The translations under genes were made by a program, and so were the position numbers. A stretch of 64,000 nt of DNA, taken from the IMG/VR virus record IMGVR_UViG_3300045922_000503, positions 1-64,000 of that record. One strand, given 5' to 3'. Source of the DNA: a virus. Below the pieces are notes generated by a model, which had not been told where the DNA came from, searched no databases, and saw only the letters and a list, made by a program, of their open reading frames with translations. The first letter of the stretch is position 1. Each line of letters begins with the position of its first letter. Below, piece by piece: positions 27 through 53,691 of the stretch.

Positions 27-201
27 GTTGCGTTCCCGGTGGGGCAAAGCCGGGTCCTCATTCGTTTTCTGCCCCTCGACTGCGAACCATTCGCAGTCGT
101 ATTCCATAACTATTATGGGCACTTACGGCCCTATTTTAGTGGCGGAAGGCTAAGACCACCCGAAGGTGTAGCCCCCTCCCCTTTGCCAGAGGGGAGGGGG
201 A
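6..201 (-). repeat. Copy 1 of a duplicated structured intergenic/5' leader element
   Basis: Near-identical to 483-639; copy 1 has an extra ~40-bp segment containing a promoter-motif variant. Confidence 0.9.
111..120 (-). promoter_or_regulatory. Promoter-motif variant GCCCATAATA
   Basis: 2 mismatches to GGCCATAACA; followed by hairpin GACTGCGA-ATGGT-TCGCAGTC. Confidence 0.55.
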
Positions 202-203
202 GT

Positions 204-500
204 TCAGGCCCTGGCGGCCGCCTCGGCCGCCAGGGCGGAGGCTCGGGCGGTGGAGGCCCAGGCCTCCACCTGGGCGGCGGAGGACGCGGCGGCCTGGGCC
301 TCCGCCTCCCGGGCGTGCGCCCGGGTGGCCCGGGCGGCGGCCTGGGCGCACCAGGCGGCCCATCGGGCCCTATCCCGGGCGGAGGAGGCCGTCCGGGCAT
401 GGGCCGCCGCCGCCCGGGCGGCGGAGGCCACCGACCGGACGGCGGCGGCCGCCTCCCGGGGGGCGGAGGAGAAGGAGGTGGAGTTGTTGTTGTTAGTCAT
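204..500 (-). CDS. Small Ala/Arg-rich helical hypothetical protein (98 aa, MTNNNNST...)
   Basis: In-frame ATG at 500 within ORF 204..800, immediately downstream of the conserved leader. Confidence 0.6.
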   Translation of the reverse strand: MTNNNNSTSFSSAPREAAAAVRSVASAARAAAAHARTASSARDRARWAAWCAQAAARATRAHAREAEAQAAASSAAQVEAWASTARASALAAEAAARA

Positions 501-639
501 GTTACGTTCCCGGTGGGGCAAAGCCGGGTCCTCATTCGTTGTCTGCCCCTCGACTGCGAATGGTTCGCAGTCATATCTTGTAGCTAAGACCGCCCGAAGG
601 CGTAGCCTCCCTCCCCTTCGCCAGAGGGGGAGGGAGGGA
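483..639 (-). repeat. Copy 2 of the duplicated structured leader element
   Basis: Direct repeat of 6-201 with compensatory stem changes. Confidence 0.9.
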
Positions 640-648
640 CCCCCAAGG

Positions 649-1191
649 TCACCCTTCACACACCTGTCTCCAGGTGGATGTGAAGGTCCCCCCCATGACC
701 TTGGGGTCATACACCAGTGCGTTCGCGCACCAGAAGGTGCGCGACGCATTGGTGTCCTCAGGAGCCAGGTGGGGGTCCCACGGCTCCTGAGGGGACACAC
801 CGCCGCAGAAGGCGGTGACCAGGACGTACCGTCCTGGGATCACCTGCCCGCTGCGGCGGTCGCTGGCGGCGAATGCAATCACCGCCAGCAGGGACGATTC
901 GGGGCCCTCCGCCCCGACCGCAACCCGGGAAGCCCGGGCGCGAGCGGTGCGGAGGGCAAACGTGGTGGGCTCGTCCCAGCCCACCACGTCAGTCGCGACA
1001 AGGCCGCTCCGGCCAATGACGCGACCGAAGTCGACGTCAGTGACCATGAACGACCCGTCGCCGGGCAGGAGGAGGCGTTGCATCGCCTCCTCAATCACCT
1101 TGCCCACCTCAGGGTGGGCGATCAAGTGGTCTTTTGTTTTCGGGGGGACCACCATCACCCCGCCGCACCCTGTGCGGTAAAGATCTTGCAT
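649..1191 (-). CDS. Hypothetical protein (180 aa)
   Basis: GGAGG RBS before ATG 1191 (MQDLYR...); globular-looking sequence. Confidence 0.7.
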   Translation of the reverse strand: MQDLYRTGCGGVMVVPPKTKDHLIAHPEVGKVIEEAMQRLLLPGDGSFMVTDVDFGRVIGRSGLVATDVVGWDEPTTFALRTARARASRVAVGAEGPESSLLAVIAFAASDRRSGQVIPGRYVLVTAFCGGVSPQEPWDPHLAPEDTNASRTFWCANALVYDPKVMGGTFTSTWRQVCEG

Positions 1192-1227
1192 TTGCCCTCC
1201 GTGGGCTTTTGCGACCCCATTGTCGCA

Positions 1228-1617
1228 GTACACGCACTGGGAATCGAACCCAGTCACAGCCGCCAAGGCGTGTAGTTGTCGAGTGCGTACATGATTTGAG
1301 CACGCTTTACCTCTTGCAGCAGGGGCTCGACACCTCCCGTAGAGCTGCAAGGGTTTGCCCTATTGCCGGGCCGGGTTCTCCTTTACCCCTCATGGCGGCA
1401 CGCGGCCACGTCTGGGTGTTGACGCGCCGATCCACGATGGAGATGGGGGGTACACTTCGCGTGCACCGAGCGCTTGTAGCCGCAGGGTCCTCGCTACAAG
1501 CCGAGGCCGGTGTTCAGGGTGTCCGGTCACCCGGGTCATCGAAGATGCGCATGGCGTCTCTTCTCCTCCCTCTGTGTACCTCTTTAGAGGCTCTGGGCTT
1601 GGGACCAGTGCGTGTGC
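1228..1617 (-). ncRNA. Candidate ~390-nt structured ncRNA with tRNA-like 3' end
   Basis: Downstream of motif at 1673-1682; 5' ACACGCACTGG pairs with 3' CCAGTGCGTGT; T-arm CTGGG-TTCGATT-CCCAG near the 3' end; several internal hairpins; no long minus-strand ORF with a convincing start. Confidence 0.5.
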
Positions 1618-1672
1618 TGACCGTCAGCAACGCAGCCACATTGAGGAGCGAGCAGATCAAGGACCTCGCAAG

Positions 1673-1682
1673 TGTTATGGCC
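1673..1682 (-). promoter_or_regulatory. GGCCATAACA putative phage early promoter
   Basis: Exact motif, just after the VWA gene stop. Confidence 0.75.
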
Positions 1683-1684
1683 AC

Positions 1685-3079
1685 TCACGTGCGGGCCTTG
1701 CCCCTGAACTGCTCGAACATCACGCCCCCTGTACCGGCCGCCAGCTTGGCCAGCTCCGGGTTCTTGGACTCCATCGCAAATCCGTGAACCCGGGTACCGG
1801 GGATGTCTGAGGGCTTGACGCCCTTGGCGGAGTTGTCGTCGTCGGTCAGGACGACGACTTCGGGGCGGTAGAGCATGGCCCCGCTGGCGACCTGCTCTTC
1901 TATGAACTTATGGGCAAACTTCACCGCCCCGGCGATGTCAGTACCGCCGCCACTGAAGCTGCCCTTGGTGAAGTCCCGAATGAGGGCGTGCGCCTCCTCG
2001 GGCGTGCTGGCGACGCGGACCCTCGACGAGGACGCGTCAAACACGCTGAGGTAGACCACAGCGTCCCCACTCAGGACCGCCTTCAGCCGGTTCATCACGA
2101 CACCTGTTGCCAGCAGGTGTCGTGATCCAAACATTGACCCGGACCCGTCCAGGGCGATGTAGATCGCCTGCCGGCGCTCTACACGCGTGACGCGCTCCCG
2201 TACCGGCAGCTGACCTGACACCGCCTGGTACAGGAAATAACCCGGGTTCTGCTGACGGGCCGCCCATGCTGTCGCCGGGACCTTTTGCAGTTCGTGCAGC
2301 CCCTTGATCGGGCGCTGACGAACCTCCGACCCCTCTGGGTCGGCCTCCACCTTCCGCTGCCTGCGCACTTGCAGCCTGGTGAAGCGGTCCAGGGTGCGGC
2401 TGACCTCTAGGATCAACCTGGCACCCTCTGGGTCGGCCATCTCCTGCGCGATCTGGGCCTCTTTGAGGTCCGGGTTGTTTTGGTTGGCCGCCCCCGTGGC
2501 CTTTTCCAACATCTCCCGTTCCTCTTCGGTCATGGACTCCACAATGTCCATGACCTCATTGATGTCGGAAGCCGGGTCCGCGGCCTCCGACGAGAAGATG
2601 GGGAGCGGCTGGCCCTCGCCGCTCCCCGAGCCCCCCTTCATCTTGGACAGCATGGCCAGAATGGCCACTGCCTTCTGAAGGGGGGTCGAGCCAGGAGCGG
2701 AGTCGTAGTTGAGCGAGTCAACAAACTCCGTCACCCGGCGGTTGTAGTTTTCCACCGCCATCAGGTGGGCCTTGATGGCGGTGGAATACACTGAGGTTAC
2801 CCCGCCCGACCCCCCGGGGAAGGCTCCCGCGACTGACCGCGGGATCTCCCACCGCGAAGCTGCGGGGTCCAGCTTCGCCTCCACCTCTTCGCGCAGATCG
2901 GCGCGATAGGCGGAGAGGGGGACGGTTTGGCCGCCGGCGGCCATCCGGGCTAGGTCCGTGACTAGGTCACGGCTGTAGCCCTTTAGGCCGACGGCGGCGG
3001 CCGCCTCTTTCATCTCCTCGACCGTGGGGTCGAGGAAGTCCAGAGGCGCTTTAGTCCGCCTTGACATGCTGTCCTCCAT
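1685..3079 (-). CDS. VWA (von Willebrand A) domain protein, ViaA/CoxE-like partner of a MoxR ATPase
   Basis: MIDAS DGSGS (IYIALDGSGSM), GGGTDI, VVLTDD; adjacent to AAA+ ATPase. Confidence 0.85.
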   Translation of the reverse strand: MEDSMSRRTKAPLDFLDPTVEEMKEAAAAVGLKGYSRDLVTDLARMAAGGQTVPLSAYRADLREEVEAKLDPAASRWEIPRSVAGAFPGGSGGVTSVYSTAIKAHLMAVENYNRRVTEFVDSLNYDSAPGSTPLQKAVAILAMLSKMKGGSGSGEGQPLPIFSSEAADPASDINEVMDIVESMTEEEREMLEKATGAANQNNPDLKEAQIAQEMADPEGARLILEVSRTLDRFTRLQVRRQRKVEADPEGSEVRQRPIKGLHELQKVPATAWAARQQNPGYFLYQAVSGQLPVRERVTRVERRQAIYIALDGSGSMFGSRHLLATGVVMNRLKAVLSGDAVVYLSVFDASSSRVRVASTPEEAHALIRDFTKGSFSGGGTDIAGAVKFAHKFIEEQVASGAMLYRPEVVVLTDDDNSAKGVKPSDIPGTRVHGFAMESKNPELAKLAAGTGGVMFEQFRGKART

Positions 3080-3151: not shown

Positions 3152-4276
3152 TCAGATCTTTGTTTCGCTGATCGCGAGCTCCTGCAGGCGAACCGCCTGC
3201 TTCTGTGCTTCCGCCCGGGCGGCGCCCACCCGGGCCTTCAGGTCGTCTGGAAGCGACTTGAAAGTCGCTTCCGTTGCCTGAATGAGCCGCTTGGAAGCCT
3301 GTAGAAGCTTGATTGGAGACCCAGAGTTCTGGGCCTCCTTGCCGGCGGCCAGGAGGCCGTTCACCTCCTGGATCCACCGGGACACTACGCCCTCCGCAGC
3401 GGCCCGCTCCGCGGCGGCGGCGATTTCTTCTTCCACCCCGGCAGCCAGGCTGCCGAGGCCGTCCACGAATCGGAGGGCCAGGAGGTCCTCCTTCCGGGGG
3501 GAGCCATGGCCGTTCATCGCCGCCTGGGCGCGGACCACCCCGGCGGCGTGGACCGCTGTTCGGGGCGACACAGGCCGTCCCCCCTCAGCCCCCGCCTTCG
3601 CGAGTAGCTGGGCGAGGACGGGGGTCATGTCCCCGATCTTTGCCCCGGGGACTGCCTCCAGGAGGCGGAGGTAGTCCCCGGCTTCATACTTCTCCCACTC
3701 CACGCGAAGCTGGAGCGGGAACCTCTCAATCAGGGCATGGGCTGCGGGGCCCATGTCGCTGATATCTTCCGGGTCTTTGTTGGTCAGCCCGACGACGACC
3801 CGGGTCTTCATCGGGAACCGCTGCGCGCCCTTCCGCAGCTCCTTCGCGGTGAGGGTGTCCTTCAGGGCGAGAAGGACACTCGTGGGAGCGTCGAACAGCT
3901 CCTCAAACACCGCCCACTCGGCGTTGAGGAAGGACCTCTCCGGGTGGTACCGAAGTACCTTCTCCGTCTCCAGGGCAGTAAAGTCCAGACCGCCCCAGAG
4001 CGTGGCCTCGTCCATGCCCTCTCCGAAGGATTGGACGAATACGTCTGCTGAGGCGGCGGCCACCCGCCCCAGCCCCACGCTGGTCATCTCGCTCTTGCCG
4101 TGGCCAGCGGGGCCCCACAGCAAGAGGTTCTTCCCGCTGGCGATGGCCAGCGCCAACGCCGACGCGAATGCGTCGGCATAGACGAAACCGGCCGCCTCAA
4201 GGGCGGCCAGGATCGTCTGCCTAAGGTTGGCAGAGGAAGAAGAAGAAGAAGAAGAAGCAGAGATGCGCGCGTTCAT
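3152..4276 (-). CDS. MoxR/RavA-like AAA+ ATPase
   Basis: Walker A GPAGHGKS, Walker B-like AVFEE, LTN sensor, ALIERF Arg finger. Confidence 0.85.
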   Translation of the reverse strand: MNARISASSSSSSSSANLRQTILAALEAAGFVYADAFASALALAIASGKNLLLWGPAGHGKSEMTSVGLGRVAAASADVFVQSFGEGMDEATLWGGLDFTALETEKVLRYHPERSFLNAEWAVFEELFDAPTSVLLALKDTLTAKELRKGAQRFPMKTRVVVGLTNKDPEDISDMGPAAHALIERFPLQLRVEWEKYEAGDYLRLLEAVPGAKIGDMTPVLAQLLAKAGAEGGRPVSPRTAVHAAGVVRAQAAMNGHGSPRKEDLLALRFVDGLGSLAAGVEEEIAAAAERAAAEGVVSRWIQEVNGLLAAGKEAQNSGSPIKLLQASKRLIQATEATFKSLPDDLKARVGAARAEAQKQAVRLQELAISETKI

Positions 4277-4367: not shown

Positions 4368-4377
4368 TGTTATGGCC
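4368..4377 (-). promoter_or_regulatory. GGCCATAACA promoter motif plus hairpin CTGGGA-ATGGC-TCCCAG
   Basis: Exact motif ~90 nt upstream of the MoxR ATG. Confidence 0.75.
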
Positions 4378-4433
4378 AACTCCTTGAAACCTAACAGAAA
4401 ACTTCAGTTGATTCCGAAGTTTTCCAGCACGGC

Positions 4434-6096: not shown

Positions 6097-6106
6097 TGTT
6101 ATGGCC
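6097..6106 (-). promoter_or_regulatory. GGCCATAACA promoter motif plus hairpin
   Basis: Exact motif ~46 nt upstream of the ComM-like ATG; AAGGAG RBS. Confidence 0.75.
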
Positions 6107-8552: not shown

Positions 8553-8680
8553 CCTGGTGTTCTCAGGGTGGCGCTGCCGGCATTCACCTCGCGCTCTCCG
8601 GCCCGGTCGAGCTCCGGACCTCGTAAGGTTTCACATCCCAGGTGCGATACGAACCATTCGTAAGCGCCTGTAATCAATAC

Positions 8681-8690
8681 TGTTATGGCC
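8681..8690 (-). promoter_or_regulatory. GGCCATAACA promoter motif plus hairpin TACGA-ATGGT-TCGTA
   Basis: Exact motif, divergent from the copy at 8724. Confidence 0.7.
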
Positions 8691-8723: not shown

Positions 8724-8733
8724 GGCCATAACA
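8724..8733 (+). promoter_or_regulatory. GGCCATAACA promoter motif plus hairpin ACAGGG-AATGGA-CCCTGT
   Basis: Exact motif ~46 nt upstream of ATG 8780. Confidence 0.75.
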
Positions 8734-13534: not shown

Positions 13535-13544
13535 GGCCATAACA
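13535..13544 (+). promoter_or_regulatory. GGCCATAACA promoter motif
   Basis: Exact motif; points into a non-coding structured segment. Confidence 0.7.
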
Positions 13545-13715
13545 GCCGTGCCCAGACATAGGTCACCGCCCTGCGCTCTGGAGAGAGGGACAGAGCGCAG
13601 GGCGGCTTCCTTTGGGCCAGGTGCTTAGAGGCTCAGCGGGGGGTGTAAATCCGCGGCCTCGCCCTGGGTGTACGCCCCATACAGAATCTGACCCGGGACG
13701 TCAAGGGCGCAGACG
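13545..13715 (+). ncRNA. Candidate structured small RNA
   Basis: 15-bp perfect stem CCGCCCTGCGCTCTG/CAGAGCGCAGGGCGG, then a stem-loop whose loop GGGGTGTA can pair with downstream TACGCCCC. Confidence 0.4.
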
Positions 13716-18318: not shown

Positions 18319-18328
18319 GGCCATAACA
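18319..18328 (+). promoter_or_regulatory. GGCCATAACA promoter motif
   Basis: Exact motif 25 nt upstream of ATG 18354; GGAGG RBS. Confidence 0.75.
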
Positions 18329-19509: not shown

Positions 19510-19519
19510 GGCCATAACA
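19510..19519 (+). promoter_or_regulatory. GGCCATAACA promoter motif plus hairpin GACGCAG-ATGGG-CTGCGTC
   Basis: Exact motif heading the 19.6-23.8 kb operon. Confidence 0.75.
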
Positions 19520-21755: not shown

Positions 21756-21786
21756 GCAGCACCCTGCACTACGAGAACCAAGAAAC

Positions 21787-28312: not shown

Positions 28313-28322
28313 TGTTATGGCC
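28313..28322 (-). promoter_or_regulatory. GGCCATAACA promoter motif plus hairpin GCAGG-GATCAG-CCTGC
   Basis: Exact motif ~48 nt upstream of ATG 28264. Confidence 0.75.
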
Positions 28323-31122: not shown

Positions 31123-31132
31123 GGCCATAATG
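31123..31132 (+). promoter_or_regulatory. Promoter-motif variant GGCCATAATG plus hairpin GCAGGG-ATAGG-CCCTGC
   Basis: 8/10 match, same hairpin position, precedes two leaderless genes. Confidence 0.65.
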
Positions 31133-35015: not shown

Positions 35016-35081
35016 CCCCTGTAGCGCCTCGTCGCCAGGTGCTGTATGAAGGTTGCCACCCCGTCTCGGACAGGAGAGGAC

Positions 35082-38000
35082 ATGGCACCCCCCTACGACA
35101 TCGACGACTTCGAGAACACCGCTGCTGACCCCAACGCGGGGTGGGAAGGAGGCCCTCCTGTAGGCATGGAGAAGGTCTCCAGGACGGAGCGAGACAACTA
35201 CCCGAGGTCTGCCCCATCCGCGATGCTGTCCGACCGCCCCATGACCCCCCAGGAAGAGGAGCGGCGGCGCATCATGAGGTCCCTTGAGGACCCTCGCGAC
35301 ATGGCGAGAGACGTCGTGAACAAGACCGTCTCCGCGCTGGACCGAACGTTCGCAGACCCCATCTCCGGCGGTCGGTACCGGGTAGAGCGCGTGGGAGATC
35401 TCATCGTAGAGGACATCCCTGACCCTTGGGACCACGCCGCCGTTGCTGACACCATCGCCAGGGACGGGACCTACGGGCCGCTCGTCAAGGGCAGATTCCG
35501 CATCCTCGACACCAAGGAGACGGACGCCGACGGGAACCCCAAGGTGGTCAAGGAGCAGGTCATCAACCTGGCCCGAGTGCCCACGCCAACGGCAGACCGG
35601 GCCTACGTGGTAGGCGGAAAGAAGCGGGCCATGATGAGCCAGTTCCGGCGACTCCCCGGCGTGTTTACCCGGACCAACGCTAAGGGGGAGACGGAGCTCG
35701 AGGCCAACCTGGACCCGTCGACTTCGTCTCAGCTCCCCAGCTTCAAGGTGGTCTTGGACCGAACGACCAATGACACAGCCACCCCGTTCAAGATGCGCAT
35801 CGGGACCATGAAGTCCGGGGACGCGTGGCAGGTGGCCAAGCTCCTGGGAGCTGACGCGAAGGACCTGAAGGAGGCCGTGGGGGAGGAGACGGCGGCCAAG
35901 ATCCTCAAGACGGACTCCAAGGATCGTTACGAGCGCGAGATGCGCAAGCTGTACGGTAAGATCCATGCTGCCGACCGCGGGGGCATGGGCAAGACCAACG
36001 CCAAGCACCTACCTCTGGGGGAGATCGAGGCTGACCTCATGAAACAGTTCACCACGTCCTACATCTCCCCGGAGGTCAGCAAGATGACCTTGGGGAAAGA
36101 GACGGACCGCGTGGACAAAGACGTGCTTCTCACTGGGTTCCGACGTCTCCAGGCTGTGGCGTCCGGTGATGAAGAAGAAGACGACCGTGAGTCGCTCGCG
36201 CTGAAGCAGGTCATGGGGCCAGCCGACCTGATCGCGGAGTCCGTAGGCCGGTCCTCAACGGTGGAGAAGAACCGGCGCGCCATGTCGTCTAAGCTGAGGG
36301 CGCTGACTTTCAACAAGGACGCCAACCCGAACCTGGCGCAAATCGTCGGGCCACGCTTTCGCAAGGCCATCGAGGCAAAGACCTCCACCTCGATGGAGCA
36401 GCGGACTCTGGACTCCACGACCCCTATCGACACCATCGCCCAGGCTACTACGACCACCATCCTGGGAGCAGGCGCCATCGGCAGCGAGCAGGCCATTCCT
36501 GATGAAGCCAAGCTGCTGAACAGTGGCGGCTTCGGTTTCCTGGACCCTCTTCACACGCCGGAGAGCGCGCGGTCGGGCGTGGTGCTTCACAAGCCCATGA
36601 GGACCGGGGTCAAGACAGTCGAGACGGGGAGAGCCTCTCAGCCGACGATCAACGTCTTGACGTCCGAGTTCCTCGACCGGAGCGGGAAGCCACTGGAGCT
36701 CTCCTCTGCGGAGGTGAAGGGCAAGCCCATTGGGCTCTTCGACCAATACGACCGGGGCGAAGACGGGAAAATCAAGCCTAAGAACCTCCCCGGCGGCGTG
36801 GTCAAGGCACTGGTGGACGGTCAGGTCAAGCTGGTTGACCCCAAAGAGATCAGCGTGTGGGCCCAGGACGCTGGGCAGGCGTTTGACATCAACTCCAGCC
36901 TCATCCCTTTCGCCAACTCCATCTCCGGCGGGCGCGTCGGCTACTCCAGCAAGCAGACTCAACAATCACTGCCCCTGAAGTACCGGGAAGCGCCGTTGGT
37001 GCAGGTCCGCGCTCCTGGTTCCGCCAACTCGATGGAGGCCCTGCTGGGAGAAGAGGCAGGCGCGGTCAACTCTCCTGTAGACGGCACCATCGTCGACATA
37101 GTGGACACGCCCAAGAAGAGGACGGTGACCATCAAGCCGAAAGATGGGGGCAAGGACATCACCCTCTCCGTCCCCCACAACATCGCCATGCCTGGTGGCT
37201 CGCTGATGGACAGTGAGATGAAGGTCAAGCAGGGTGACTCCGTCTCAAGGGGGCAGCTCATCGCGGACTCTACCTTTACCAAGGATGGAGTCATGGCTGC
37301 AGGGACGAACCTGCGGGTCGCCTACCTCCCCTACTACACGTCGACCTTCGAGGACGCCATCGTCCTCAGCAAGTCGGCGGCTGACAAACTCACGTCCCTT
37401 CACATGTACGAAGAGAAGGTGAGGGGCAAGGGCGTGGATCTGGGCAAGAGCCTGTACGTAACTCGCACAGGTACTCCGCTGTCCAAGGAGGAGGACGATA
37501 GCATTGGGGACGACGGAATCGTCAAGGTGGGGACGCGCGTCAAGCCAGGGCAGCTGCTGGTCGCCGGCTCTCGCTCTCAAGCCATGACCGGGTCTGACAT
37601 TGAGACCGCGGCTGCACTGCTGGGTCTATACGGGACCAAGAACAAGCGAGGCGTCACCACCCGAGTCGCGGAGTTTGAGCAGCGCTGGGATCACCCCGTC
37701 GAAGGGACAGTGAAGCGGGTGGAGCCCATCGTGAAGGGAGGCAAGACGGTAGGAGCCACGGTCTACGTCGAGGCGGAGGAGCCCTTCGAGGTGGGAGACA
37801 AGATCTTCGGCCGCCACGGGAACAAGGGCATCGTCACAGAGATCATTCCTGACGATAAGATGCCCAGGACGAAGGACGGCAAGGCCATGGACGTGCTGCT
37901 GAACCCGGCCGGTGTCGTGGGGCGAATCAACCCGTCTCAGAACTTCGAGAACTTTCTCGGGAAGGTCGCGGAGAAGAAGGGGTCTCCCGAGGTTGTCGAC

Positions 38001-41000
38001 AACTGGAAGTACCAGGACAACTGGCAGCATGTGAAAGACACCCTCGAGAAGGAAGGCGTGGCCGACGCCGAGGACCTCATCGACCCTGTCACAGGACGGG
38101 TGCTGAAGTCTGTTGGCTTCGGCAACCAGTACATCCTGAAGGCCAAGCAACAGGTGGAGCATAAGTCCTTGGCACGCGGCGTGGGGACGTTCTCTGAGTC
38201 AGGCAGCGTGGTGAAGGGTGACGACGGCGCACAGGCGCTGGGCGAGCTCGGAGTCTACGCGCTCCTGGCGCAGGACGCCCGTGAGTTCCTGCGGGACGCC
38301 CAGCTCAACAAGTCCGAGGACCGCCCCGAAGTGTGGGATGCTCTTCGGCGGGGGTCTCCCATCCCGCCGGCGGTGCAGCCACCTGAGCAGTTCCAACGCT
38401 TCCAGGACTACCTCACCGCCGCCGGCGTTGTCATGGAGCGCAAGGGTGACAAGATGAAGCTCACCCGCCCCGTGACCGATGATGAGGTCAAGGCTACGGC
38501 GCAGACGTTCGGGAAGGACAACGTCCTGACGGAGCCTTGGAAAACGGTTCGGGTCAAAGCCAAGGACAGCGCGGAAGACGGGGTGTCCCGCACCGAAATC
38601 ATGGAGAAAGGAGGGCTATTCGACCCGGACGCTACGGCCGGGTTCCAAGGGACGAAGTGGTCCAGGTTCAGCCTCTCCACGCCCATCCCCAACCCGACTT
38701 ACGAGCAGCCCATCATGGACCTGCTCGGCATGAGCGCCAAAGAATACGAGGATCTCCGTACAGGCGTCCGAGCGGTCGAGGTAGACGGGAAGAAGCTTAC
38801 AGGAGCACGTGCCGTCGACACCCTGCTGAGCAAAGTGAACGTCGACGCCATCGAGGCAGAGACAAAGACTATCTTGGAGCAGAGCAAGGACAAGTCTGAG
38901 AGAAACCGGGCGTACCGGCTCGCCAGAAACATCAAGATGCTCAAGGAGAACAACCTTGACCCGCAGAAGGCGTACATGCGGCAGGAGGTCCTCGTGCTGC
39001 CTGCCCGGATGAGGGGAGTCTCAAAGGACGAATCCACCGGCGATCTGGTCATCGGGGACATCAACTACCTCTACCGGGACATTGCCCTTACTGAGAAGGC
39101 TCTTCGGGATGCCAAGGCTCAGAATCTCCCGGACACGATCATCAGTGAGCTGGAAACGGGGCTCTACGAGGGGGTCCGGGCGCTCAACCAGGTGCAGAAG
39201 TCCGAGCCGCTCAGTCCCGGCTCGACCTACCAGGGCATCTTTGGCATTCTCGCAGGCCGGATCCCGACTGGCGACGGCGGAGAGGTGTCAGACGTCAAGT
39301 CCAGCTTCGCCAAGAAGAACCTACTGGAGCGCCGGCAGGTCATGAGCGCCCGGACCGTCCTGACGCCCAAGGATGACTTGGATATGGACGAGGTAGGTGT
39401 CCCCCGGCGGGTGGCCGCCGCGGTCTTTGAGCCTTTGCTCGAAGCGGAGTTCCACCGGAACCACGACATGCAGTCGACTCGTGGGCGGGAGGAATTCAAG
39501 CAGTTCCGGGATAGACTGCAGGAGTACAAGGCGACCAACACGCCCGACGAGATGATCGACAGGTACCTGGACCGGGTAGTGGCGGACAGGTACGTCGCTG
39601 TGAAGCGGGACCCTGCTCTTCACATGTTCAGCTTTCAAGGGTTCAAGCCCGTGCTCAGCCGGGAGAAGACTGTCAACTTGAACCCCCTCGTGTACGCTGG
39701 CTTCAATGCGGATAACGACGGCGACTCCGTACTTGGTCGGGTGACTTTGTTCATCGGAGACGGCGGCGAAGTCGAGCCTACGACTATGGACATCTCCTGC
39801 TTCCCCCATGTGCCGGGGTCAGAGCGCGTGTCTGAGAAGGGGACGCGGGTCTACGACGTTCCTGCTGGCATCCGGGTGCCTGCTATCCACCCGGATGGAA
39901 CCGAAGTGCTGGCAGAGGTCACAGAGTGGTCTGTCCACGAGGACGTGGACACCTACTTCGTGCGGTTGGCGTCAGGCCGGTCCATGATTGTGTCCGGAGA
40001 CCATAGCCTGTGCACTCTCAGCCTGGACACCATGCAGGTGGAGAAGACTCGGCCCCAGGATGCAGTGGGTCGTGCGGTGCCCGTGCAGGTGCAGTACGAT
40101 TGCGCCAACGGCGCAGAGGAGCACCCGGCGTTCGGTGCGCCGTCGTTCCTTCGCACGGATGAGGACACCGGGTGGCTGATCGGTATCATTCTGTCGCAGG
40201 GATGGATTGGGGCGGACGCCAGAGGGCGGCCTCACCGCATCCAGCTGCCGTGGCACGACGCACAGGCGCCTTCTATCCAGGGTGTCCACGACGACATCAA
40301 GCGTATCGTGAGCACGTACACCCTGAACGCGTTCACCTTCCAGGATGTCAGATGGGCACCACGGGCAGCAGCGGCGAGGCTGGGCGGGTCCAGGGCATTG
40401 ATCCTGGAACCCGACCTGGCGGCTGCGGTGGCTGACGCCGTCCAGTGGCAGCCCGAGGACAGCGCGCGCGGGTATCGCTTGGCCCCGTGGGTGTTTACAG
40501 CTTCACGCTCCTTCCGGCGAGGTCTGCTGTCGGGCATCTTCGACGGCCGGGGGGGCGTCCCCCACGGCGCCCACCGGAAGGATGCAACCAGCCTGCTGAT
40601 CACGATCCCGCCGGACTACCCCGACGCTCCAGGCCTTGCCCGGGACGTCGCGCTCCTCGCGGAGTCACTGGGTGCGGGGGCAACGATGACCAACAATGCC
40701 CGGGGTCAGTACCTGGTCACAATGGCCAACGTCGCCCCAGTCCTCCGCCCACGCCACCCGGAGACGAAGGAACGCGTCGATGTCATTCTGGCGTACAGCC
40801 GAAAGATTCTGGGCGATGCAGACCCCGTTCGCATTCCTGTGCCATCATCCGTCCGTAAGGACCTGATCCACGCTCTGTCCTCCTTGGGGGCTACATCCCC
40901 CCGACGACGAAAGAACGAAGAGGTGTCTGCCGCGGCAGCTATTTGGTACTGGGCGGTCAAGAACCGCACAGCGCAGGGGGGGTGGCCGACCCGGAAGTTT

Positions 41001-43313
41001 CTGGCCGAGCTGTTGGAGTTCTTGCTGGAGCACGCCCAGGAGGACCAGACTGCCCTGCTGAGAGACGCGACCAGGTGGTGTGAGTCGGTGCACCAGTCGT
41101 CTGTCTCATGGGACGAAGTGGTTGAAGTGAAGAGCCTCAACCAGAAGACGACCATGTACGACCTCACTGTTCCCGGGCCGTACACCTTCGCCATGGCGAC
41201 AGGTGCCTACGTATGGGACACGCTGGCCATTTACGCGCCGGTGAGCCCGGAAGCCAACCGGGAGATCCGGGACAAGATGCTGCCCAGCAAGAACCTGTTC
41301 TCTCATGCCAGCCACCAGGTTGAGCACGGTATCAGTCACGAGGCCATCCTGGGCCTCGCGCGCATGACGAAGCCGCCGACGGGAGACATGAGCAAGCCCA
41401 AAGCGAAGTTTGCCAGCGTCGCGGAGGCGGAAAAGGCATTCAACGCCAACGAGATCGATGTTACCGATCCCATCTCTATTGGCGGGCAGAACACGACGCT
41501 TGGGAGGGCGCTTATCAACGCGGCTCTGCCGGCGGGCACCACCTTGGAGAGCCTGCAGGCGGCTGGGGTCATCTCCGCGCAGGGAGACTTCGGCATCGAC
41601 AAGAAGAGCGTGGGGAATATCAACCGCTGGCTCGCTGTTGAGCATCCCAACGCCTATTCCCAGGTGGCCAACACGCTGCGAAAGACTGGGCAGAAGTACG
41701 CCACCCTCACCGGCTCCTCCATCCGGCTCGACGACCTCAAGCCCATCGTGAAGCAGGAGCGGGAAGAGGCTGAACAGGCCATCTTCAAAGCCGTGGCGGA
41801 GATCAACAAGGAGACTGCCCCCAACTCCAAGGAGAGGAAGGACCGAACGGCAGGCGTGTTCTCAGAGTGGATCAACAAGGTCAACGCGTCCGCTAAGCCA
41901 GTCATTCATGCCGCCACGGATAACGTCAACGTCGAGCTGACGGTCACCGGCGCTCGCATCAAGCCTACCCAGCTTCAGCAGGTCATCCAAGCCCCTATGG
42001 CAATGACGGACACCAAGGGGGACGTCATTCCTTCGCCAGTGATGCGCTCATACTCAGAAGGGCTGGATGGCGGTGGGTATATGGCATCCCTGCCTGGAGC
42101 CCGGTCCGGCACGGTCGCGAAGGTCCAGCAGGTGCAGGAGCCCGGCTACCTCACCAAGCAGGTCGTCAACACCGTCATCGACCAGACGGTAGCAGAAGAG
42201 GACTGCGGCACCACCCGAGGGGTGGAAGTTGACCTGAGCAGGCCCAGCCAGGACACAACGAATCGCTACCTCGCTCGCGATGTGCAGGTCGGAGGGACCA
42301 CGTACCCCAGAAACACGCTCCTGACGGAACAGCTCACGTCTGAGATCAGTCGACAGAGCTCTGGCGTTGCCAAGGTGCTCGTCCGGTCCCCGCTCACGTG
42401 CCAGACCAGGGGAGGGGGCGTCTGCCAGAAATGTACAGGTACCTTGCCCGGCGGTAAGGCGATGCCTGTGGGACACAACTTCGGCATCACTTCCGCTCAG
42501 GCCATTGGGGAGCGCTCCACGCAGATGATGCTGAGCCTCTTCCACGAGGGCGGAGTCTTCAACCCTAACGCGGGCACTGGCGCCCGCGATGTCTACAAGC
42601 AGGCGTCTGCTTTTCTTCGGATGCCCAAGGGGATGAACGGGATGGAGGCAGTGGTGAGCGACCGGGACGCTACGGTCACGATGGTCAAGGAGAACAAGTC
42701 CAAGGGAGGCATTGACGTTCACTTCGACTCTGGGCGCCCCATGTTCTTCAAGAACGAAGTGAAGTCTCCATCCGGCGGCGACATTCGAGACTTCCTCTCC
42801 GTGGGCAAGAAGGTGACCAAGGGGGAAATCCTGACTGAAGGCGTCGCCAACCCCAAGGTCTTGTTGGAGGCTACAGGAGACATGGGGAGGGTGCAGAACT
42901 ACATCGTCGACAACCTCGGGGAGCTCTACGCTGGCACGGGGGTCAAGCGACGAAACGTAGAAGCGCTGGTCCGGGGCATCACGGGCACCGTAGAGGTGAC
43001 GAGTGCTGGACGTAGCAACTACATGCCTGGCCAGCGTATCTCTGCGGTCGAAGCGGAGGACATGGCGGCAAAGGACCGTCAATTCAAGTTCAAGCCTGTT
43101 CTCATGGGAGTCGACGTGGCCCCTAAGGAGGCACGAGAGGACTTCCTGGCTCACCTCAACTTCAACGACATCCGCCGGCAGTTGGTCACGGGGGCAGCCA
43201 TCGGCGCGGAGAGCGATCTGCACGGAACTAACCCTATCCCGGGGCTCTTCTATGGTGTAGAGTTCAATCGGCAGTTCCAGTTCGGGCCTGCCTCCACTGA
43301 CGGAACCTACTGA
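35082..43313 (+). CDS. Single-polypeptide fused beta-beta' DNA-directed RNA polymerase, intein-containing
   Basis: beta motifs SQFRRLPG, LDPLHTPES, SLIPF, FEDAIVLS, GDKIFGRHGNKG, LLNPAGVVGRIN, GAQALGE; beta' motifs DINYLYR, KRDPALH, NADNDGD, bridge helix GARSG..GYLTK, trigger loop AQAIGERSTQM, Zn site RSPLTC..CQKC; AGGAGAGG RBS before ATG 35082. Confidence 0.95.
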   Translation: MAPPYDIDDFENTAADPNAGWEGGPPVGMEKVSRTERDNYPRSAPSAMLSDRPMTPQEEERRRIMRSLEDPRDMARDVVNKTVSALDRTFADPISGGRYRVERVGDLIVEDIPDPWDHAAVADTIARDGTYGPLVKGRFRILDTKETDADGNPKVVKEQVINLARVPTPTADRAYVVGGKKRAMMSQFRRLPGVFTRTNAKGETELEANLDPSTSSQLPSFKVVLDRTTNDTATPFKMRIGTMKSGDAWQVAKLLGADAKDLKEAVGEETAAKILKTDSKDRYEREMRKLYGKIHAADRGGMGKTNAKHLPLGEIEADLMKQFTTSYISPEVSKMTLGKETDRVDKDVLLTGFRRLQAVASGDEEEDDRESLALKQVMGPADLIAESVGRSSTVEKNRRAMSSKLRALTFNKDANPNLAQIVGPRFRKAIEAKTSTSMEQRTLDSTTPIDTIAQATTTTILGAGAIGSEQAIPDEAKLLNSGGFGFLDPLHTPESARSGVVLHKPMRTGVKTVETGRASQPTINVLTSEFLDRSGKPLELSSAEVKGKPIGLFDQYDRGEDGKIKPKNLPGGVVKALVDGQVKLVDPKEISVWAQDAGQAFDINSSLIPFANSISGGRVGYSSKQTQQSLPLKYREAPLVQVRAPGSANSMEALLGEEAGAVNSPVDGTIVDIVDTPKKRTVTIKPKDGGKDITLSVPHNIAMPGGSLMDSEMKVKQGDSVSRGQLIADSTFTKDGVMAAGTNLRVAYLPYYTSTFEDAIVLSKSAADKLTSLHMYEEKVRGKGVDLGKSLYVTRTGTPLSKEEDDSIGDDGIVKVGTRVKPGQLLVAGSRSQAMTGSDIETAAALLGLYGTKNKRGVTTRVAEFEQRWDHPVEGTVKRVEPIVKGGKTVGATVYVEAEEPFEVGDKIFGRHGNKGIVTEIIPDDKMPRTKDGKAMDVLLNPAGVVGRINPSQNFENFLGKVAEKKGSPEVVDNWKYQDNWQHVKDTLEKEGVADAEDLIDPVTGRVLKSVGFGNQYILKAKQQVEHKSLARGVGTFSESGSVVKGDDGAQALGELGVYALLAQDAREFLRDAQLNKSEDRPEVWDALRRGSPIPPAVQPPEQFQRFQDYLTAAGVVMERKGDKMKLTRPVTDDEVKATAQTFGKDNVLTEPWKTVRVKAKDSAEDGVSRTEIMEKGGLFDPDATAGFQGTKWSRFSLSTPIPNPTYEQPIMDLLGMSAKEYEDLRTGVRAVEVDGKKLTGARAVDTLLSKVNVDAIEAETKTILEQSKDKSERNRAYRLARNIKMLKENNLDPQKAYMRQEVLVLPARMRGVSKDESTGDLVIGDINYLYRDIALTEKALRDAKAQNLPDTIISELETGLYEGVRALNQVQKSEPLSPGSTYQGIFGILAGRIPTGDGGEVSDVKSSFAKKNLLERRQVMSARTVLTPKDDLDMDEVGVPRRVAAAVFEPLLEAEFHRNHDMQSTRGREEFKQFRDRLQEYKATNTPDEMIDRYLDRVVADRYVAVKRDPALHMFSFQGFKPVLSREKTVNLNPLVYAGFNADNDGDSVLGRVTLFIGDGGEVEPTTMDISCFPHVPGSERVSEKGTRVYDVPAGIRVPAIHPDGTEVLAEVTEWSVHEDVDTYFVRLASGRSMIVSGDHSLCTLSLDTMQVEKTRPQDAVGRAVPVQVQYDCANGAEEHPAFGAPSFLRTDEDTGWLIGIILSQGWIGADARGRPHRIQLPWHDAQAPSIQGVHDDIKRIVSTYTLNAFTFQDVRWAPRAAAARLGGSRALILEPDLAAAVADAVQWQPEDSARGYRLAPWVFTASRSFRRGLLSGIFDGRGGVPHGAHRKDATSLLITIPPDYPDAPGLARDVALLAESLGAGATMTNNARGQYLVTMANVAPVLRPRHPETKERVDVILAYSRKILGDADPVRIPVPSSVRKDLIHALSSLGATSPRRRKNEEVSAAAAIWYWAVKNRTAQGGWPTRKFLAELLEFLLEHAQEDQTALLRDATRWCESVHQSSVSWDEVVEVKSLNQKTTMYDLTVPGPYTFAMATGAYVWDTLAIYAPVSPEANREIRDKMLPSKNLFSHASHQVEHGISHEAILGLARMTKPPTGDMSKPKAKFASVAEAEKAFNANEIDVTDPISIGGQNTTLGRALINAALPAGTTLESLQAAGVISAQGDFGIDKKSVGNINRWLAVEHPNAYSQVANTLRKTGQKYATLTGSSIRLDDLKPIVKQEREEAEQAIFKAVAEINKETAPNSKERKDRTAGVFSEWINKVNASAKPVIHAATDNVNVELTVTGARIKPTQLQQVIQAPMAMTDTKGDVIPSPVMRSYSEGLDGGGYMASLPGARSGTVAKVQQVQEPGYLTKQVVNTVIDQTVAEEDCGTTRGVEVDLSRPSQDTTNRYLARDVQVGGTTYPRNTLLTEQLTSEISRQSSGVAKVLVRSPLTCQTRGGGVCQKCTGTLPGGKAMPVGHNFGITSAQAIGERSTQMMLSLFHEGGVFNPNAGTGARDVYKQASAFLRMPKGMNGMEAVVSDRDATVTMVKENKSKGGIDVHFDSGRPMFFKNEVKSPSGGDIRDFLSVGKKVTKGEILTEGVANPKVLLEATGDMGRVQNYIVDNLGELYAGTGVKRRNVEALVRGITGTVEVTSAGRSNYMPGQRISAVEAEDMAAKDRQFKFKPVLMGVDVAPKEAREDFLAHLNFNDIRRQLVTGAAIGAESDLHGTNPIPGLFYGVEFNRQFQFGPASTDGTY
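39726..41219 (+). mobile_element. Intein (498 aa) with LAGLIDADG-like homing endonuclease region in the RNAP active-site loop
   Basis: Interrupts NADNDGD|TLAIYAP (cf. NADFDGDQMAVHVP); starts SVLG, block B SGDH, LAGLIDADG-like WLIGIILSQG and LLSGIFDGRG, block F/G MYDLTVPGPYTFAMATGAYVWD/T. Confidence 0.9.
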
Positions 43314-43966: not shown

Positions 43967-43975
43967 CGGTGGCCG

Positions 43976-47408: not shown

Positions 47409-47414
47409 CCGGCC

Positions 47415-47882
47415 GTGATGAAGGTATCCCATAGATGCGCCCTGCGGAAGCTGTCCGCTCTGTACCGAAACGGGCAGCCTCTGTCGCTAGAGCAGGGTAA
47501 ACAGTGGACAGACCTGGACGTCGATGCGCTAGAGCGGAAGATGGTGGCGGAGGGCAGGCCTCCATTTACAGAGGAACAGCGGCGACGAGCATCGCCCCGT
47601 CGCACCCGCTCCGTGCCTCAGCCTCCTGTGGTATCGACAGCTTCGCCTTTGCAAGATACAGTAGCACCGACACGGGCTGCACCAGCGCCCGTTTCAGTTA
47701 CGGCTCCTCCGGCGGCTGTTCCCACCCCAGGTACGATGGCACCCCCTACTCCCCAGTCAGCGGGAACCGCGACTGCTAGTCGAGTCTCTCCCCACATGCC
47801 AGGTAGGTGGAGACCCTACGCAGCTGCAGGAGCGCTCGGGTTAGGAGCTGGGTATCTAGGCGGACGATTGGTAGGAGGATGA
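47415..47882 (+). CDS. Leader-bearing Pro-rich protein with C-terminal Gly zipper (MKVSHRCALRKLS)
   Basis: Leader motif; AAAGALGLGAGYLGG tail. Confidence 0.8.
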   Translation: MMKVSHRCALRKLSALYRNGQPLSLEQGKQWTDLDVDALERKMVAEGRPPFTEEQRRRASPRRTRSVPQPPVVSTASPLQDTVAPTRAAPAPVSVTAPPAAVPTPGTMAPPTPQSAGTATASRVSPHMPGRWRPYAAAGALGLGAGYLGGRLVGG

Positions 47883-47941
47883 CACAATGAACCCTCGTAG
47901 CCGATGCGCCCTAGCAACAGATCTTTCCCCCAAGAGGCCAC

Positions 47942-48403
47942 ATGGCAATGAACTCGTCTCTTAGACTCTACGCCCTATCGAAGGTTTCTTCTCTCTCGGA
48001 GGCAGCTACCTATGGGGGTGTAGGCCTTCATGCTGGCGTTTTGGGAGGCGCTGCGCTCGGATACGCATCACCGGAGAGCGCCAAGGCACGGGCAGGTCTG
48101 AAGGCTGAACGTGCCGCCAACGCCGCAGCTTTGGCCGCGGGCCCGACGGACGATAGACTGCTCCAGAAGGGCCTAGCTATGACCTTCGACAAGAACGCGC
48201 CCGGTGCCCTAACCGATAAAATGGTAGACGCTCTCTATAACCCTGCGTCTAGTCAGGTTGACCTCCGTCGTGTCGACCGGCTATTGGATACGAACAACGC
48301 GGCTCAAGCGTACCGTAGGGTGTACGGCCAGATGGGCAGATATGGGGCGGCAGGGGCTCTGGGGCTTGGAGCTCTTGGGGCAGGCGTCGGGCTTTTCTCG
48401 TAA
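47942..48403 (+). CDS. Leader-bearing Gly-zipper protein (MNSSLRLYALSKVS)
   Basis: Leader motif; two Gly-rich segments. Confidence 0.8.
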   Translation: MAMNSSLRLYALSKVSSLSEAATYGGVGLHAGVLGGAALGYASPESAKARAGLKAERAANAAALAAGPTDDRLLQKGLAMTFDKNAPGALTDKMVDALYNPASSQVDLRRVDRLLDTNNAAQAYRRVYGQMGRYGAAGALGLGALGAGVGLFS

Positions 48404-48412
48404 AGGTGGGAC

Positions 48413-49306
<894 letters not shown>

Positions 49307-51705: not shown

Positions 51706-51714
51706 GGTAGCCTC

Positions 51715-51954
51715 TCAGGAAAGACTCAAGATGTAAGCGTGGACGACTGGCCAGGCTCCAACCTTGATGGTGATAGGGGGTTGGGATGATGGGTGGCGCT
51801 CTACCACCCACTGCCCGTCGGGAAGGTCAGGATCTGGGGAGGTCAAGCACCCGACTACGTAGGTACTATCAGGCGATTTCCATCCAGGACGGCTCACCGT
51901 CTTCGACCATGCCCGCGCAGTGAAGAACTCAAGAGGGGTAGGTACTGCAGTCAT
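51715..51954 (-). CDS. Small hypothetical protein (MTAVPTPLEFF...)
   Basis: ATG 51954; possible promoter variant GGACATAAGG at 51991-52000. Confidence 0.45.
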   Translation of the reverse strand: MTAVPTPLEFFTARAWSKTVSRPGWKSPDSTYVVGCLTSPDPDLPDGQWVVERHPSSQPPITIKVGAWPVVHAYILSLS

Positions 51955-52083
51955 TCGATGTCCAGGGGCAGAGGAAAGAGGTATCGCAGCCCTTATGTCC
52001 AACAACGAGGAACTTGTCCACGCCTGTCCCTCGTGCTACCCTCAGGAGAGGCGCCCCCGCCACCTCAGACAAGCAGAGGCCAC

Positions 52084-52887
52084 ATGCGTCCCTACTACAA
52101 GAGATCTTCCCTTCAAGAAGTTGCCGACCTGGCGCAACAAAAGTCCGTGCTCCCTCTAGGCCTCATCGGGGCCGGAGCAGGCGGGCTGGCAGGTCTTGGA
52201 CTAGGAAGCCTCGTTGGCAAAGCAATTGGAAGGCGGGTCAGCCCTGTGACGCATACGCTTATGGCGCTGGGCGCGGCAGGGTCGGGCGCGAGCGTTGGTG
52301 TAGACTGGGCTAACCGGAATGCTATCGCAGATGCTCGCGACCAGGTCATTGGCCGGATGAGTGACGACGATCTGTCGAGGGCAAGGTCACTGATGGCCCT
52401 CGAGCATGCGTACACTACGGGGAGGATGGGAGTAGACGCAACGGACAGGTACGAGCGTATGTACGAGGAACTCCCTGTCGACCCGTACGACGGGCCAATC
52501 AACGCGCGGGGAGCGCGCGCAGCTATGCTCGGGGCCCAGGCATTGGGGGCGGCTGGTCTAGTCGGAGCCATCAACCCGTTCGGGGCACAAGGCGTTAGAA
52601 GGGCGGCGGCACCATTGGCAGCAGCGCTCGGCGTGACCGGTATCGGTCTGATGAGAGACCCTTCCGGTAGACTCCCGAAGGGAGACAGGGACCATATGCG
52701 TAAGATGGGCCCTATGGTTATTGGCGGCGGTCCCGGCAATCGCGTGGCACCGCCGCTCCGGTCTACTCAGACTGCATTTGATGCGGCGGACAACGAGTTC
52801 AACCTGCGGAATGCTCTGCGAGGTCTATCCAAGCAGTCGTCAGCTCCTCTCCTTCGCCGCGGAGCCGACTATCTCTACTGGGGCTAA
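52084..52887 (+). CDS. Gly-zipper protein (MRPYYKRSS...; C-terminal LSKQSS)
   Basis: GAGG RBS before ATG 52084; two Gly-zipper hairpins. Confidence 0.75.
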   Translation: MRPYYKRSSLQEVADLAQQKSVLPLGLIGAGAGGLAGLGLGSLVGKAIGRRVSPVTHTLMALGAAGSGASVGVDWANRNAIADARDQVIGRMSDDDLSRARSLMALEHAYTTGRMGVDATDRYERMYEELPVDPYDGPINARGARAAMLGAQALGAAGLVGAINPFGAQGVRRAAAPLAAALGVTGIGLMRDPSGRLPKGDRDHMRKMGPMVIGGGPGNRVAPPLRSTQTAFDAADNEFNLRNALRGLSKQSSAPLLRRGADYLYWG

Positions 52888-52891
52888 AACA

Positions 52892-52916
52892 AGGCCCCGC
52901 TGCTACAGCGGGGCCT
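52892..52916. terminator. Hairpin between convergent genes
   Basis: AGGCCCCGCTG-CTA-CAGCGGGGCCT preceded by an A-run. Confidence 0.65.
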
Positions 52917-52962
52917 CCCTCACGCGCCTAGACGCGCAATCACCGGCGGCGCGGTCTTCCAA

Positions 52963-53634
52963 TCAGGCACGTACCTCCGAGGAGACAGCCTCCTGACTCA
53001 CGGCCCGGGCGATGTCCTCCCACATTTCGTCGATCAAGCTCAGCCGAGCACGCTCAGCTGCCCTGCGGAAGTAGCCCTCATGCGCCATACGGAGTCTCCG
53101 TACGTGGTCCTTATCCCCTGTTGCCCCGCACACGCGGTGGAACAGGGCGTCGTCTTTGCCCCCACAGGAGCCCCGCAGCAGCCGTAAAGCGTCCTCTTTT
53201 ACTCGACGTTCTACGCCCGCCGCTACGGCAGCCACGACTACCTGGTCCTCCTCTTCCCGACTCAGGGAAAGGCCCATCGCTGCAAGCGTGTTCCGACAGG
53301 CGAGAGCGCCCCATCGGTCCCACGCCTGGGAAGCCATGCTCTTGGGGACAGGCCCGTCATGGCTATGATCTTTCCACGCCTGCTCCGGGTTGTTGGAGCA
53401 GAAGTTGGACCAGTGGGGGTTTCCAAAGGTCATACCCCACGCCCTGTCGCTGGGGACCAAAGGCGTTTCCCCTGCAAGCACCACCGTCCAAGGACGGTAG
53501 TACACCTCCTCCCTTTCGGGGGAGATAACCACCCTTGCTGCCGGAAAGGCAGTCTTCACGACTGCCACTGCGGCGCTGGCGTCAAAGCTCTTCACTTCCT
53601 TCTCCAGAACGACGATGCGCGTAACTGCCACCAT
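52963..53634 (-). CDS. Hypothetical protein (223 aa)
   Basis: AGGAG RBS; downstream of promoter motif 53682. Confidence 0.75.
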   Translation of the reverse strand: MVAVTRIVVLEKEVKSFDASAAVAVVKTAFPAARVVISPEREEVYYRPWTVVLAGETPLVPSDRAWGMTFGNPHWSNFCSNNPEQAWKDHSHDGPVPKSMASQAWDRWGALACRNTLAAMGLSLSREEEDQVVVAAVAAGVERRVKEDALRLLRGSCGGKDDALFHRVCGATGDKDHVRRLRMAHEGYFRRAAERARLSLIDEMWEDIARAVSQEAVSSEVRA

Positions 53635-53681
53635 GACGGATCTCCTGTGCTTTTGGGAACCTCCATGGTTCCTCCTGGTTA

Positions 53682-53691
53682 TGTTATGGCC
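53682..53691 (-). promoter_or_regulatory. GGCCATAACA promoter motif plus hairpin GGAACC-ATGGA-GGTTCC
   Basis: Exact motif ~47 nt upstream of ATG 53634. Confidence 0.75.

Follow-up and report, generated by a model that had tools for sequence, protein, structure and literature searches.

A recurrent intergenic 10-mer as a candidate promoter core in a phage encoding a fused RNA polymerase

The stretch of DNA analyzed here (the window) comprises 64,000 nucleotides (nt), positions 1-64,000 of the 99,249-bp IMG/VR virus record IMGVR_UViG_3300045922_000503, which has a guanine-plus-cytosine (GC) content of 62.7% and a completeness of ~55% according to CheckV. The window, from a large uncultured phage, encodes a fused beta-beta' bacterial-type RNA polymerase (RNAP) and carries a recurrent 10-nt motif, GGCCATAACA, between its genes; the nature of this motif and of its reader is the subject of the present analysis. 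Genes were called with a self-trained codon model, and these calls, which are approximate, assigned 91% of the record to coding regions and left 9% non-coding. Most proteins of the record matched no Pfam or PHROG family. Among the recognizable genes in the window are those for a class II ribonucleotide reductase, MoxR-like and Mg-chelatase-like AAA+ proteins, a DNA-polymerase-exonuclease-like protein and a VWA protein, and the genes for the large terminase and the head protease are located in the record, outside the window.

The window RNAP is a member of a family with hundreds of fused phage RNAPs in metagenomes, and its closest relative, on the 76-kb contig P0002, is 87% identical. The family corresponds to the lineage termed RNAP-encoding Caudovirales, or "mReC" (PMC7481178), and large phages of this lineage with bacterial-type RNAP are widespread (PMC7481178). 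An intein splicing domain (Pfam) was detected in the beta' part of the enzyme (residues 1628-2049, window 39.9-41.2 kb), and inteins or LAGLIDADG/HNH inserts are also found at the RNAP gene in several relatives.

Exact copies of GGCCATAACA were present 10 times in the window, compared with 0.07 expected from dinucleotide shuffles (at most 1 per shuffle). All 10 had been listed in a sequence-only reading of the window, and each was recovered at its position and on its strand; the enrichment beyond chance claimed there is likewise evident. The whole record contains 12 exact copies, with the two additional ones, at 66537(-) and 66543(+), forming an overlapping palindrome between divergent genes. 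No one-mismatch copies were found in the window. The shorter core GGCCATAA occurs 15 times in the record, never within a long coding region, while control words of equal composition occurred 0-1 times. Two variants reported previously, 111(-) and 31123(+), do exist and differ from the 10-mer by two bases each; further variants were found at 51991(-), 64091(-) and 87042(+), and these, together with the 12 exact copies and the two earlier variants, make up the 17-site set used below. The variant at record positions 87042-87051 (L129 3042-3051), GGCCATAAGA, supplies with its TAA the stop codon of a small open reading frame (ORF; 86837-87049) and precedes a 395-amino-acid (aa) gene of PHROG 1221.

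All 12 exact copies are located in the non-coding 9% of the record, in agreement with the intergenic placement described initially. The motif had also been described as oriented with the following gene, where there is one: a co-oriented gene follows 10 of the 12 exact copies, at 25-181 nt, with 1673(-) as an outlier (481 nt), and two copies have no clear gene. From the 1673(-) copy, the next long minus-strand gene (649-1350) is >300 nt away. Several copies begin only 2-13 nt past the preceding stop codon, and this position directly after stop codons fits transcription-unit boundaries. Canonical sigma70 promoters were not enriched at 1-20 kb (1 versus 2.3 in shuffles).

Coding regions of a genome with 63% GC disfavor AT-rich words, and the motif includes a TAA; its confinement to intergenic DNA could therefore in principle be a chance or compositional artefact, or reflect a dispersed repeat or mobile element. 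However, neither the shuffles nor the control words reproduce its frequency, and a diverged version occupies syntenic sites in another phage (see below). Pairwise flank identity among the 17 sites, upstream and downstream, was 27%, compared with 26.6% expected; as this is the random level, the motif is no dispersed repeat. Explanations of this kind are effectively refuted.

In the 17-site alignment, only motif positions 0-10 and 15-16 carry information, ~19 bits in total. Position 15 is a pyrimidine at all 17 sites and position 16 is G at 16 of them (binomial p about 2e-12), and upstream of position 0 only a weak C at -6 relative to the motif was discernible. No conserved column was observed at -35 distance, which agrees with the initial statement that no consistent -35 box was seen. 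The motif reads tGGCCATAACA-N4-Y-G (Y, pyrimidine) or, with G16 taken as +1, t-16 G-15 G-14 C-13 C-12 A-11 T-10 A-9 A-8 C-7 A-6. Under this numbering, which assumes a start at position 16, motif positions 2 and 5-8 (G-14; A-11 T-10 A-9 A-8) are invariant or nearly so. Position -12 is C, and hence not T, at 17 of 17 sites, while -7 is C at 12, T at 3 and G at 2; the T-12 and T-7 normally required by the sigma70 family are thus absent from the motif as a rule. The overall geometry matches a sigma-type -10 element with a 6-nt discriminator and a predicted Y-1/G+1 start, and ~19 bits are enough for function without a -35 box.

The strict intergenic placement, the co-orientation with genes, the fixed Y-G, the succession of terminator and motif, and the conservation of a diverged form at syntenic sites make it almost certain that the element is a promoter of the phage lineage. 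The same observations strongly support the promoter interpretation proposed originally. A different role near promoters, as an operator for a phage DNA-binding regulator or as an RNA-level 5'-leader signal, would be in keeping with the exact invariance of the word, which is common for operators, with the perfect 16-bp palindrome formed at one site, and with the CTAG-containing repeats that adjoin one copy. However, 16 of the 17 sites are non-palindromic, the motif is strictly directional relative to genes, and a constant distance to a Y-G dinucleotide is characteristic of transcription starts. Furthermore, relatives with two boxes have the motif at -10 distance from a -35-like box, and a motif residing in the RNA would imply conserved promoters upstream, of which none is conserved. 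An operator or leader signal is therefore quite improbable.

The features of the window are compiled in Table 1. The hairpin at 4395-4426 and the 4368(-) copy together are a terminator-then-promoter unit boundary. The 8681(-) copy faces the 3' end of a plus-strand gene, and its leader holds the hairpin core CGAATGGTTCG at 8648-8662, which is also present downstream of variant 111(-). Downstream of the 13535(+) copy, between 13.6 and 14.8 kb, the coding strand is ambiguous, and the hairpin at 13568-13603 could mark a short RNA or an attenuator. Both 8681(-) and 13535(+) may produce short or antisense RNAs, or the local gene calls may be wrong. Scans of the window for Rfam families and tRNAs gave no result that would account for these orphan copies.

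Table 1. Motif sites, hairpins and principal genes of the window
Feature	Position	Strand	Remarks
Variant GCCCATAATA, TG at 15-16	111..120	-	Predicted start 105; followed by leader hairpin and small gene near contig edge
Exact copy	1673..1682	-	2 nt past stop of 1685-3079(-); predicted start 1667
MoxR-like AAA+ gene	3152-4276	-	
Exact copy	4368..4377	-	91 nt ahead of MoxR-like AAA+ gene; predicted start 4362
Terminator-like hairpin, 13-bp stem and T-rich tail	4395..4426	-	Ends 17 nt ahead of 4368 copy
Mg-chelatase-like AAA+ gene	4434-6050	-	
Exact copy	6097..6106	-	46 nt ahead of Mg-chelatase-like AAA+ gene; predicted start 6091
Exact copy, minus arm of divergent pair	8681..8690	-	Predicted start 8675
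Exact copy	8724..8733	+	46 nt ahead of 8780-9502(+); predicted start 8739
DNA-polymerase-exonuclease-like gene	9502-11124		Abutted by 8780-9502(+)
Exact copy	13535..13544	+	Predicted start 13550; class II ribonucleotide reductase gene downstream, same strand
Terminator-like hairpin, 13-bp stem	13568..13603	+	18 nt past predicted start of 13535 copy
Class II ribonucleotide reductase gene	14788-18135	+	
Exact copy	18319..18328	+	25 nt ahead of 18354-19496(+); predicted start 18334, 20-nt leader with GGAGG
Exact copy	19510..19519	+	13 nt past preceding stop; heads plus-strand gene run 19573-23804; predicted start 19525
Exact copy	28313..28322	-	48 nt ahead of 26162-28264(-); heads minus-strand run 28264-24011; predicted start 28307
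Variant GGCCATAATG, TG at 15-16	31123..31132	+	40 nt ahead of 31173-31457(+); predicted start 31138
Fused beta-beta' bacterial-type RNAP, intein-containing	35046..43313	+	2755 aa, alternative start codon 35082; Pfam beta and beta' domains in one ORF
Variant GGACATAAGG (form of relative G003), TG at 15-16	51991..52000	-	Predicted start 51985; downstream gene uncertain
Exact copy, sole site with CA rather than YG at 15-16	53682..53691	-	47 nt ahead of 52963-53634(-)

Several smaller features accompany individual sites. The CTAG direct repeats at 28327-28360 (CTAGTCCAC twice and CTAGCCCAC) adjoin the 28313(-) copy on its upstream side in a divergent intergenic region and are possible regulator sites. 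An upstream ORF of 24 codons with a strong AGGAGG (53592-53666(-)) begins 15 nt past the 53682(-) copy and overlaps the start of the 52963-53634(-) gene in a different frame. At positions 20-110 and 490-580, the 5' region of small minus-strand paralogues (MANNNN and MTNNNN, starting near 26 and 506) is present twice, each time with a hairpin that has a 9-bp stem and a 3-nt loop, the loop being flipped between the two (CCA versus TGG); these hairpins share the core CGAATGGTTCG with the 8681(-) leader. In several units (6091, 19525, 28307, 31138), a stem-loop begins no more than 2 nt from the predicted +1. A 5' stem-loop as a general feature was rejected, because the 45-nt segments directly following the predicted starts had, on average, the folding energy of random genomic 45-mers.

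Exact GGCCATAACA was absent from 80 related loci, save for two single matches expected by chance. A looser core was common only to the closest clade, and this exact core was not enriched in more distant loci. In the relative G003 (73 kb, GC 53%, RNAP 48% identical), the corresponding element is GGACATAAGA-N3-TTG, located at intergenic, co-oriented sites. Protein synteny places the divergent pair of this phage, at 7877/7946, next to the terminase orthologue, a location equivalent to that of the 66537/66543 pair here, and both G003 and the record have a further motif site at the other end of the terminase gene. Matches to the TGTTATGGCCATAACA palindrome on two contigs in IMG/VR were dismissed as chance matches, the contigs being unrelated by tblastx. 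Relatives at 41-42% RNAP identity showed one matching site each in the little sequence examined.

More diverged forms were found at greater distance. Two complete genomes with ~30% RNAP identity, G006 and G007, carry GGTATAAG or GG-N-ATAAG in intergenic regions ~30 nt before a Shine-Dalgarno sequence and ATG, at an equal distance to a pyrimidine-purine (Y-R) step and with an additional -35-like CCGAAT or GCRAAT box. In the cultured Salmonella phage Arash (OQ632216.1), GGNATAAG-N5-YR gave 34 matches, 31 of them on one strand, compared with 3 for the reversed control, and these matches are positioned just upstream of annotated genes and a tRNA. The window RNAP matched the RNAP beta gene region of Arash (gp206) in tblastn with 29.6% identity over 49% of the query. 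Relatives with the element range in GC from 51% to 67%. Because diverged versions are kept across relatives of such different composition, the element is, on these comparisons, a property of the lineage that diverges along with the phage. No promoters of mReC, Arash or YerA41 phages were described in the literature searched (PMC7481178, PMC10585845 and PMC7354516 included).

The sequence-only reading had further proposed that the motif is read by the fused RNAP. This is plausible but incomplete, as a sigma-like factor, which had not been considered, is probably needed as well. The beta' clamp helices, which are the sigma-docking site in bacterial RNAP, can be aligned between the window enzyme and that of Thermus (NYLYRD here, NDLYRR in Thermus). 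Three relatives (G006, G007 and G012) encode proteins of 240-264 aa with a Sigma70_r3 domain above the Pfam cut-off and weaker r2 and r4 matches, and a profile built from these sigma-like proteins retrieved a full-length homologue in G003 (E 3e-9). The need for a sigma-like factor is suggested by this combination of -10 geometry, sigma70-like proteins in relatives and retained clamp helices. Transcription from the motif is probably catalyzed by the fused RNAP, and recognition probably involves a phage sigma-like factor rather than the main sigma factor of the host.

No sigma gene was detected in the 99 kb of the record with the Pfam profiles Sigma70_r2, r3 and r4 or with a custom hidden Markov model built from the sigma-like proteins of relatives, the record being ~55% complete. 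A weak tblastn match of the relatives' sigma-like proteins at 20.7 kb was discarded because it lies in a bacterial PH-domain protein. The most straightforward interpretation places the sigma-like gene of this phage in the missing 45%.

The failure to detect such a gene in the record is one of the points that could be taken to indicate that the host RNAP with a host sigma factor reads the motif as an early promoter and the phage RNAP transcribes the virion genes. In its geometry, the motif corresponds exactly to a bacterial -10 element with G-14, and it does not directly precede the RNAP gene or the virion genes, as a host-first cascade predicts. However, the core is kept across phages of 51% to 67% GC, and the version in the Salmonella phage has an invariant G-7. 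T at -7 is nearly obligatory in sigma70 promoters, and an invariant G at this position makes a poor site. In addition, the 10-mer is invariant in its 12 copies, unlike host promoters, which are typically degenerate, and it lacks a -35 box; relatives have their own sigma70-like genes, and RNAP and sigma factor are virion associated in cultured relatives. Recognition by the host holoenzyme therefore seems unlikely.

A phage sigma-like factor could instead steer the host core RNAP to the motif, with the fused RNAP using other signals. T4 gp55 and SPO1 gp28, phage sigma factors that redirect the host core enzyme, are textbook precedents for such an arrangement. Group 2 jumbo phages offer a further precedent (PMC7824862), and the sigma-like genes of relatives would equally suit this role. 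In contrast, every sigma-bearing relative examined was reached via its bacterial-type RNAP gene, RNAP and sigma factor occur together in the particles of Arash and YerA41, and the phage beta' keeps its clamp helices. Moreover, upstream regions yielded no second abundant motif class that the phage RNAP could use. This arrangement, too, is improbable.

A search of the virion block yielded few relaxed sigma70-like matches and no clear shared word. Relaxed sigma70-like matches (TTGNCA, 17 nt, TATCNT-like) are situated at 31984, 45008 and 49406 (+) and at 53739 (-), in intergenic gaps of the plus-strand block of virion and leader-bearing proteins, and 5 of the 14 such matches in the record are intergenic, compared with the 9% of the record that is non-coding. 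These sites may represent a second, host-type promoter class for virion genes.

Taken together, these results are best described by a model in which the motif would be a phage-private, -10-centered promoter core heading non-virion transcription units. Transcription would start at the G six bases past the 10-mer, and a phage sigma70-like factor acting on the phage's own single-chain beta-beta' RNAP would read the motif. If the RNAP is delivered with the virion, motif-headed units may be expressed early. We favor the full combination of promoter, phage sigma-like factor and fused RNAP and consider it reasonably probable.

Several observations weigh against this model, in addition to the negative search for a sigma gene. 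With respect to the partner of the sigma-like factor, the data fit either the phage core or the host core. The C at -12 and at -7 may mean that the analogy with sigma-dependent promoters is only geometric. The exact copies 8681(-) and 13535(+) are not followed by any convincing co-oriented gene. Most motif-headed genes have no known function, and for this reason the label "non-structural" derives mainly from gene position and strand. The earlier statement that no copy precedes the RNAP gene applies to its immediate upstream region; the variant at 31123(+) is on the same strand as the RNAP gene and 3.9 kb upstream of it and could put this gene under its own promoter class. In that case, the first round of transcription would need an injected or host enzyme.

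Published virion proteomes of cultured phages bear on the delivery of the enzyme. RNAP beta is reported as the most abundant protein of Arash virions, in which a helicase, a sigma factor and beta' were also identified (PMC10585845); for YerA41, the virion proteome likewise includes a sigma factor besides RNAP subunits (PMC7354516). The N-terminal extension of the RNAP carries an x-K-[LV]-S motif in the clade, in the form GMEKVS here (35046-35180). The sigma-like ORF of G003 (71311-72363, -; L099 11311-12363) begins with MTFNLQDAFAKLS, a leader of the type also found in eight ORFs at 43331-49306 of the window. These eight leader-bearing ORFs are located just past the RNAP gene and include an SNF2 ATPase. 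The occurrence of K-x-S leaders in both the RNAP and the sigma-like protein fits, but does not prove, virion packaging of the two. Beyond the sigma-like gene of G003, a tandem array of 39-bp repeats occupies the contig end (72990-73229; L099 about 12990-13229).

The early timing proposed in the sequence-only reading gains only indirect support, from these virion proteomes and from the K-x-S leaders; early expression from an injected enzyme is plausible. A more far-reaching version would have a self-contained holoenzyme injected, with the RNAP and the sigma-like factor both targeted to the capsid by a cleavable N-terminal K-x-S leader and, upon entry, firing from a -35-independent 10-bp element whose C at -12 and C at -7 would be unseen by host sigma70. 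This version is tentative, and we are more inclined to doubt than to accept it. If correct, it would represent fully orthogonal sigma-type viral transcription, following an N4-like logic with bacterial-type parts.

Irrespective of the mode of delivery, the ~19-bit signal marks probable start positions of mReC-type polymerases. It covaries with the phage lineage, as GGCCATAACA here, GGACATAAGA in G003 and GGTATAAG in Arash, and could serve as an annotation rule for transcription units across hundreds of uncultured genomes. The system can be tested at the bench with a few recombinant proteins and short templates. Furthermore, its natural variation in specificity at -12 and -7 lends itself to studies of -10 recognition by sigma-like factors, and it may yield orthogonal expression parts.

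Compared with known systems, the motif shares individual traits with several promoter types. Sigma-28 (FliA/WhiG) promoters consist of TAAA-N15-GCCGATAA. The -10 word GCCGATAA resembles GGCCATAA (GCC...ATAA), a resemblance that is a lead only; the critical CGA is absent from the motif, and no TAAA column is found upstream. The T4 late promoter, TATAAATA, is read via gp55 with the host core enzyme and drives late virion genes. Like the T4 late promoter, the window motif is short, nearly invariant and confined to the -10 region, and a phage sigma-family reader is proposed for it. In contrast, the phage studied here possesses a core enzyme of its own, and its motif avoids the cluster of virion genes.

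The early promoters of the multisubunit virion RNAPs of phiKZ/AR9-type jumbo phages contain a highly conserved motif of ~10 nt centered near -10, which was found bioinformatically upstream of early operons (PMC7598289). The window motif is similar in length and in its predicted position near -10 without a -35 box, and it likewise occurs in an RNAP-encoding phage. However, the phiKZ and AR9 motifs are AT rich and are associated with split, highly diverged, sigma-less RNAPs, while the motif described here is 50% GC and is found with a single-chain bacterial-type RNAP in a lineage with sigma70-like proteins. Iyer et al. noted no sigma factor in the phiKZ/AR9-type group (PMC7824862).

Within the lineage, the GG-N-ATAAG promoters of Arash, G006 and G007 have in common with the window motif the G-14, the A-T-A-A core and the distance to a pyrimidine-purine start. 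They are likewise intergenic and co-oriented, avoid the immediate upstream region of the RNAP gene, and occur in phages that encode a related RNAP. The two forms differ in that the GG is one base further from ATAA here (GGCC-ATAA versus GGT-ATAA), and in that -12 is C rather than T and -7 is mostly C (G at 2 of 17 sites) rather than an invariant G; G003 keeps G at -7, unlike the window motif. In addition, the GCRAAT/CCGAAT -35-like box ~16 nt upstream is missing here, and the conserved block is longer, at 10 nt.

Extended -10 sigma70 promoters (TGnTATAAT) are -10 centered like the window motif and share with it G-14, A-11 T-10 A-9 A-8, the 6-nt discriminator and Y-1/R+1, and they, too, can function without a -35 box. 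T-15, T-12 and T-7 of these promoters are replaced by G, C and C here, and the 10-mer is invariant rather than degenerate, with a predicted start. Although two of its defining bases are lacking in the window motif, the extended -10 sigma70-type promoter is the nearest mechanistic model for this element.

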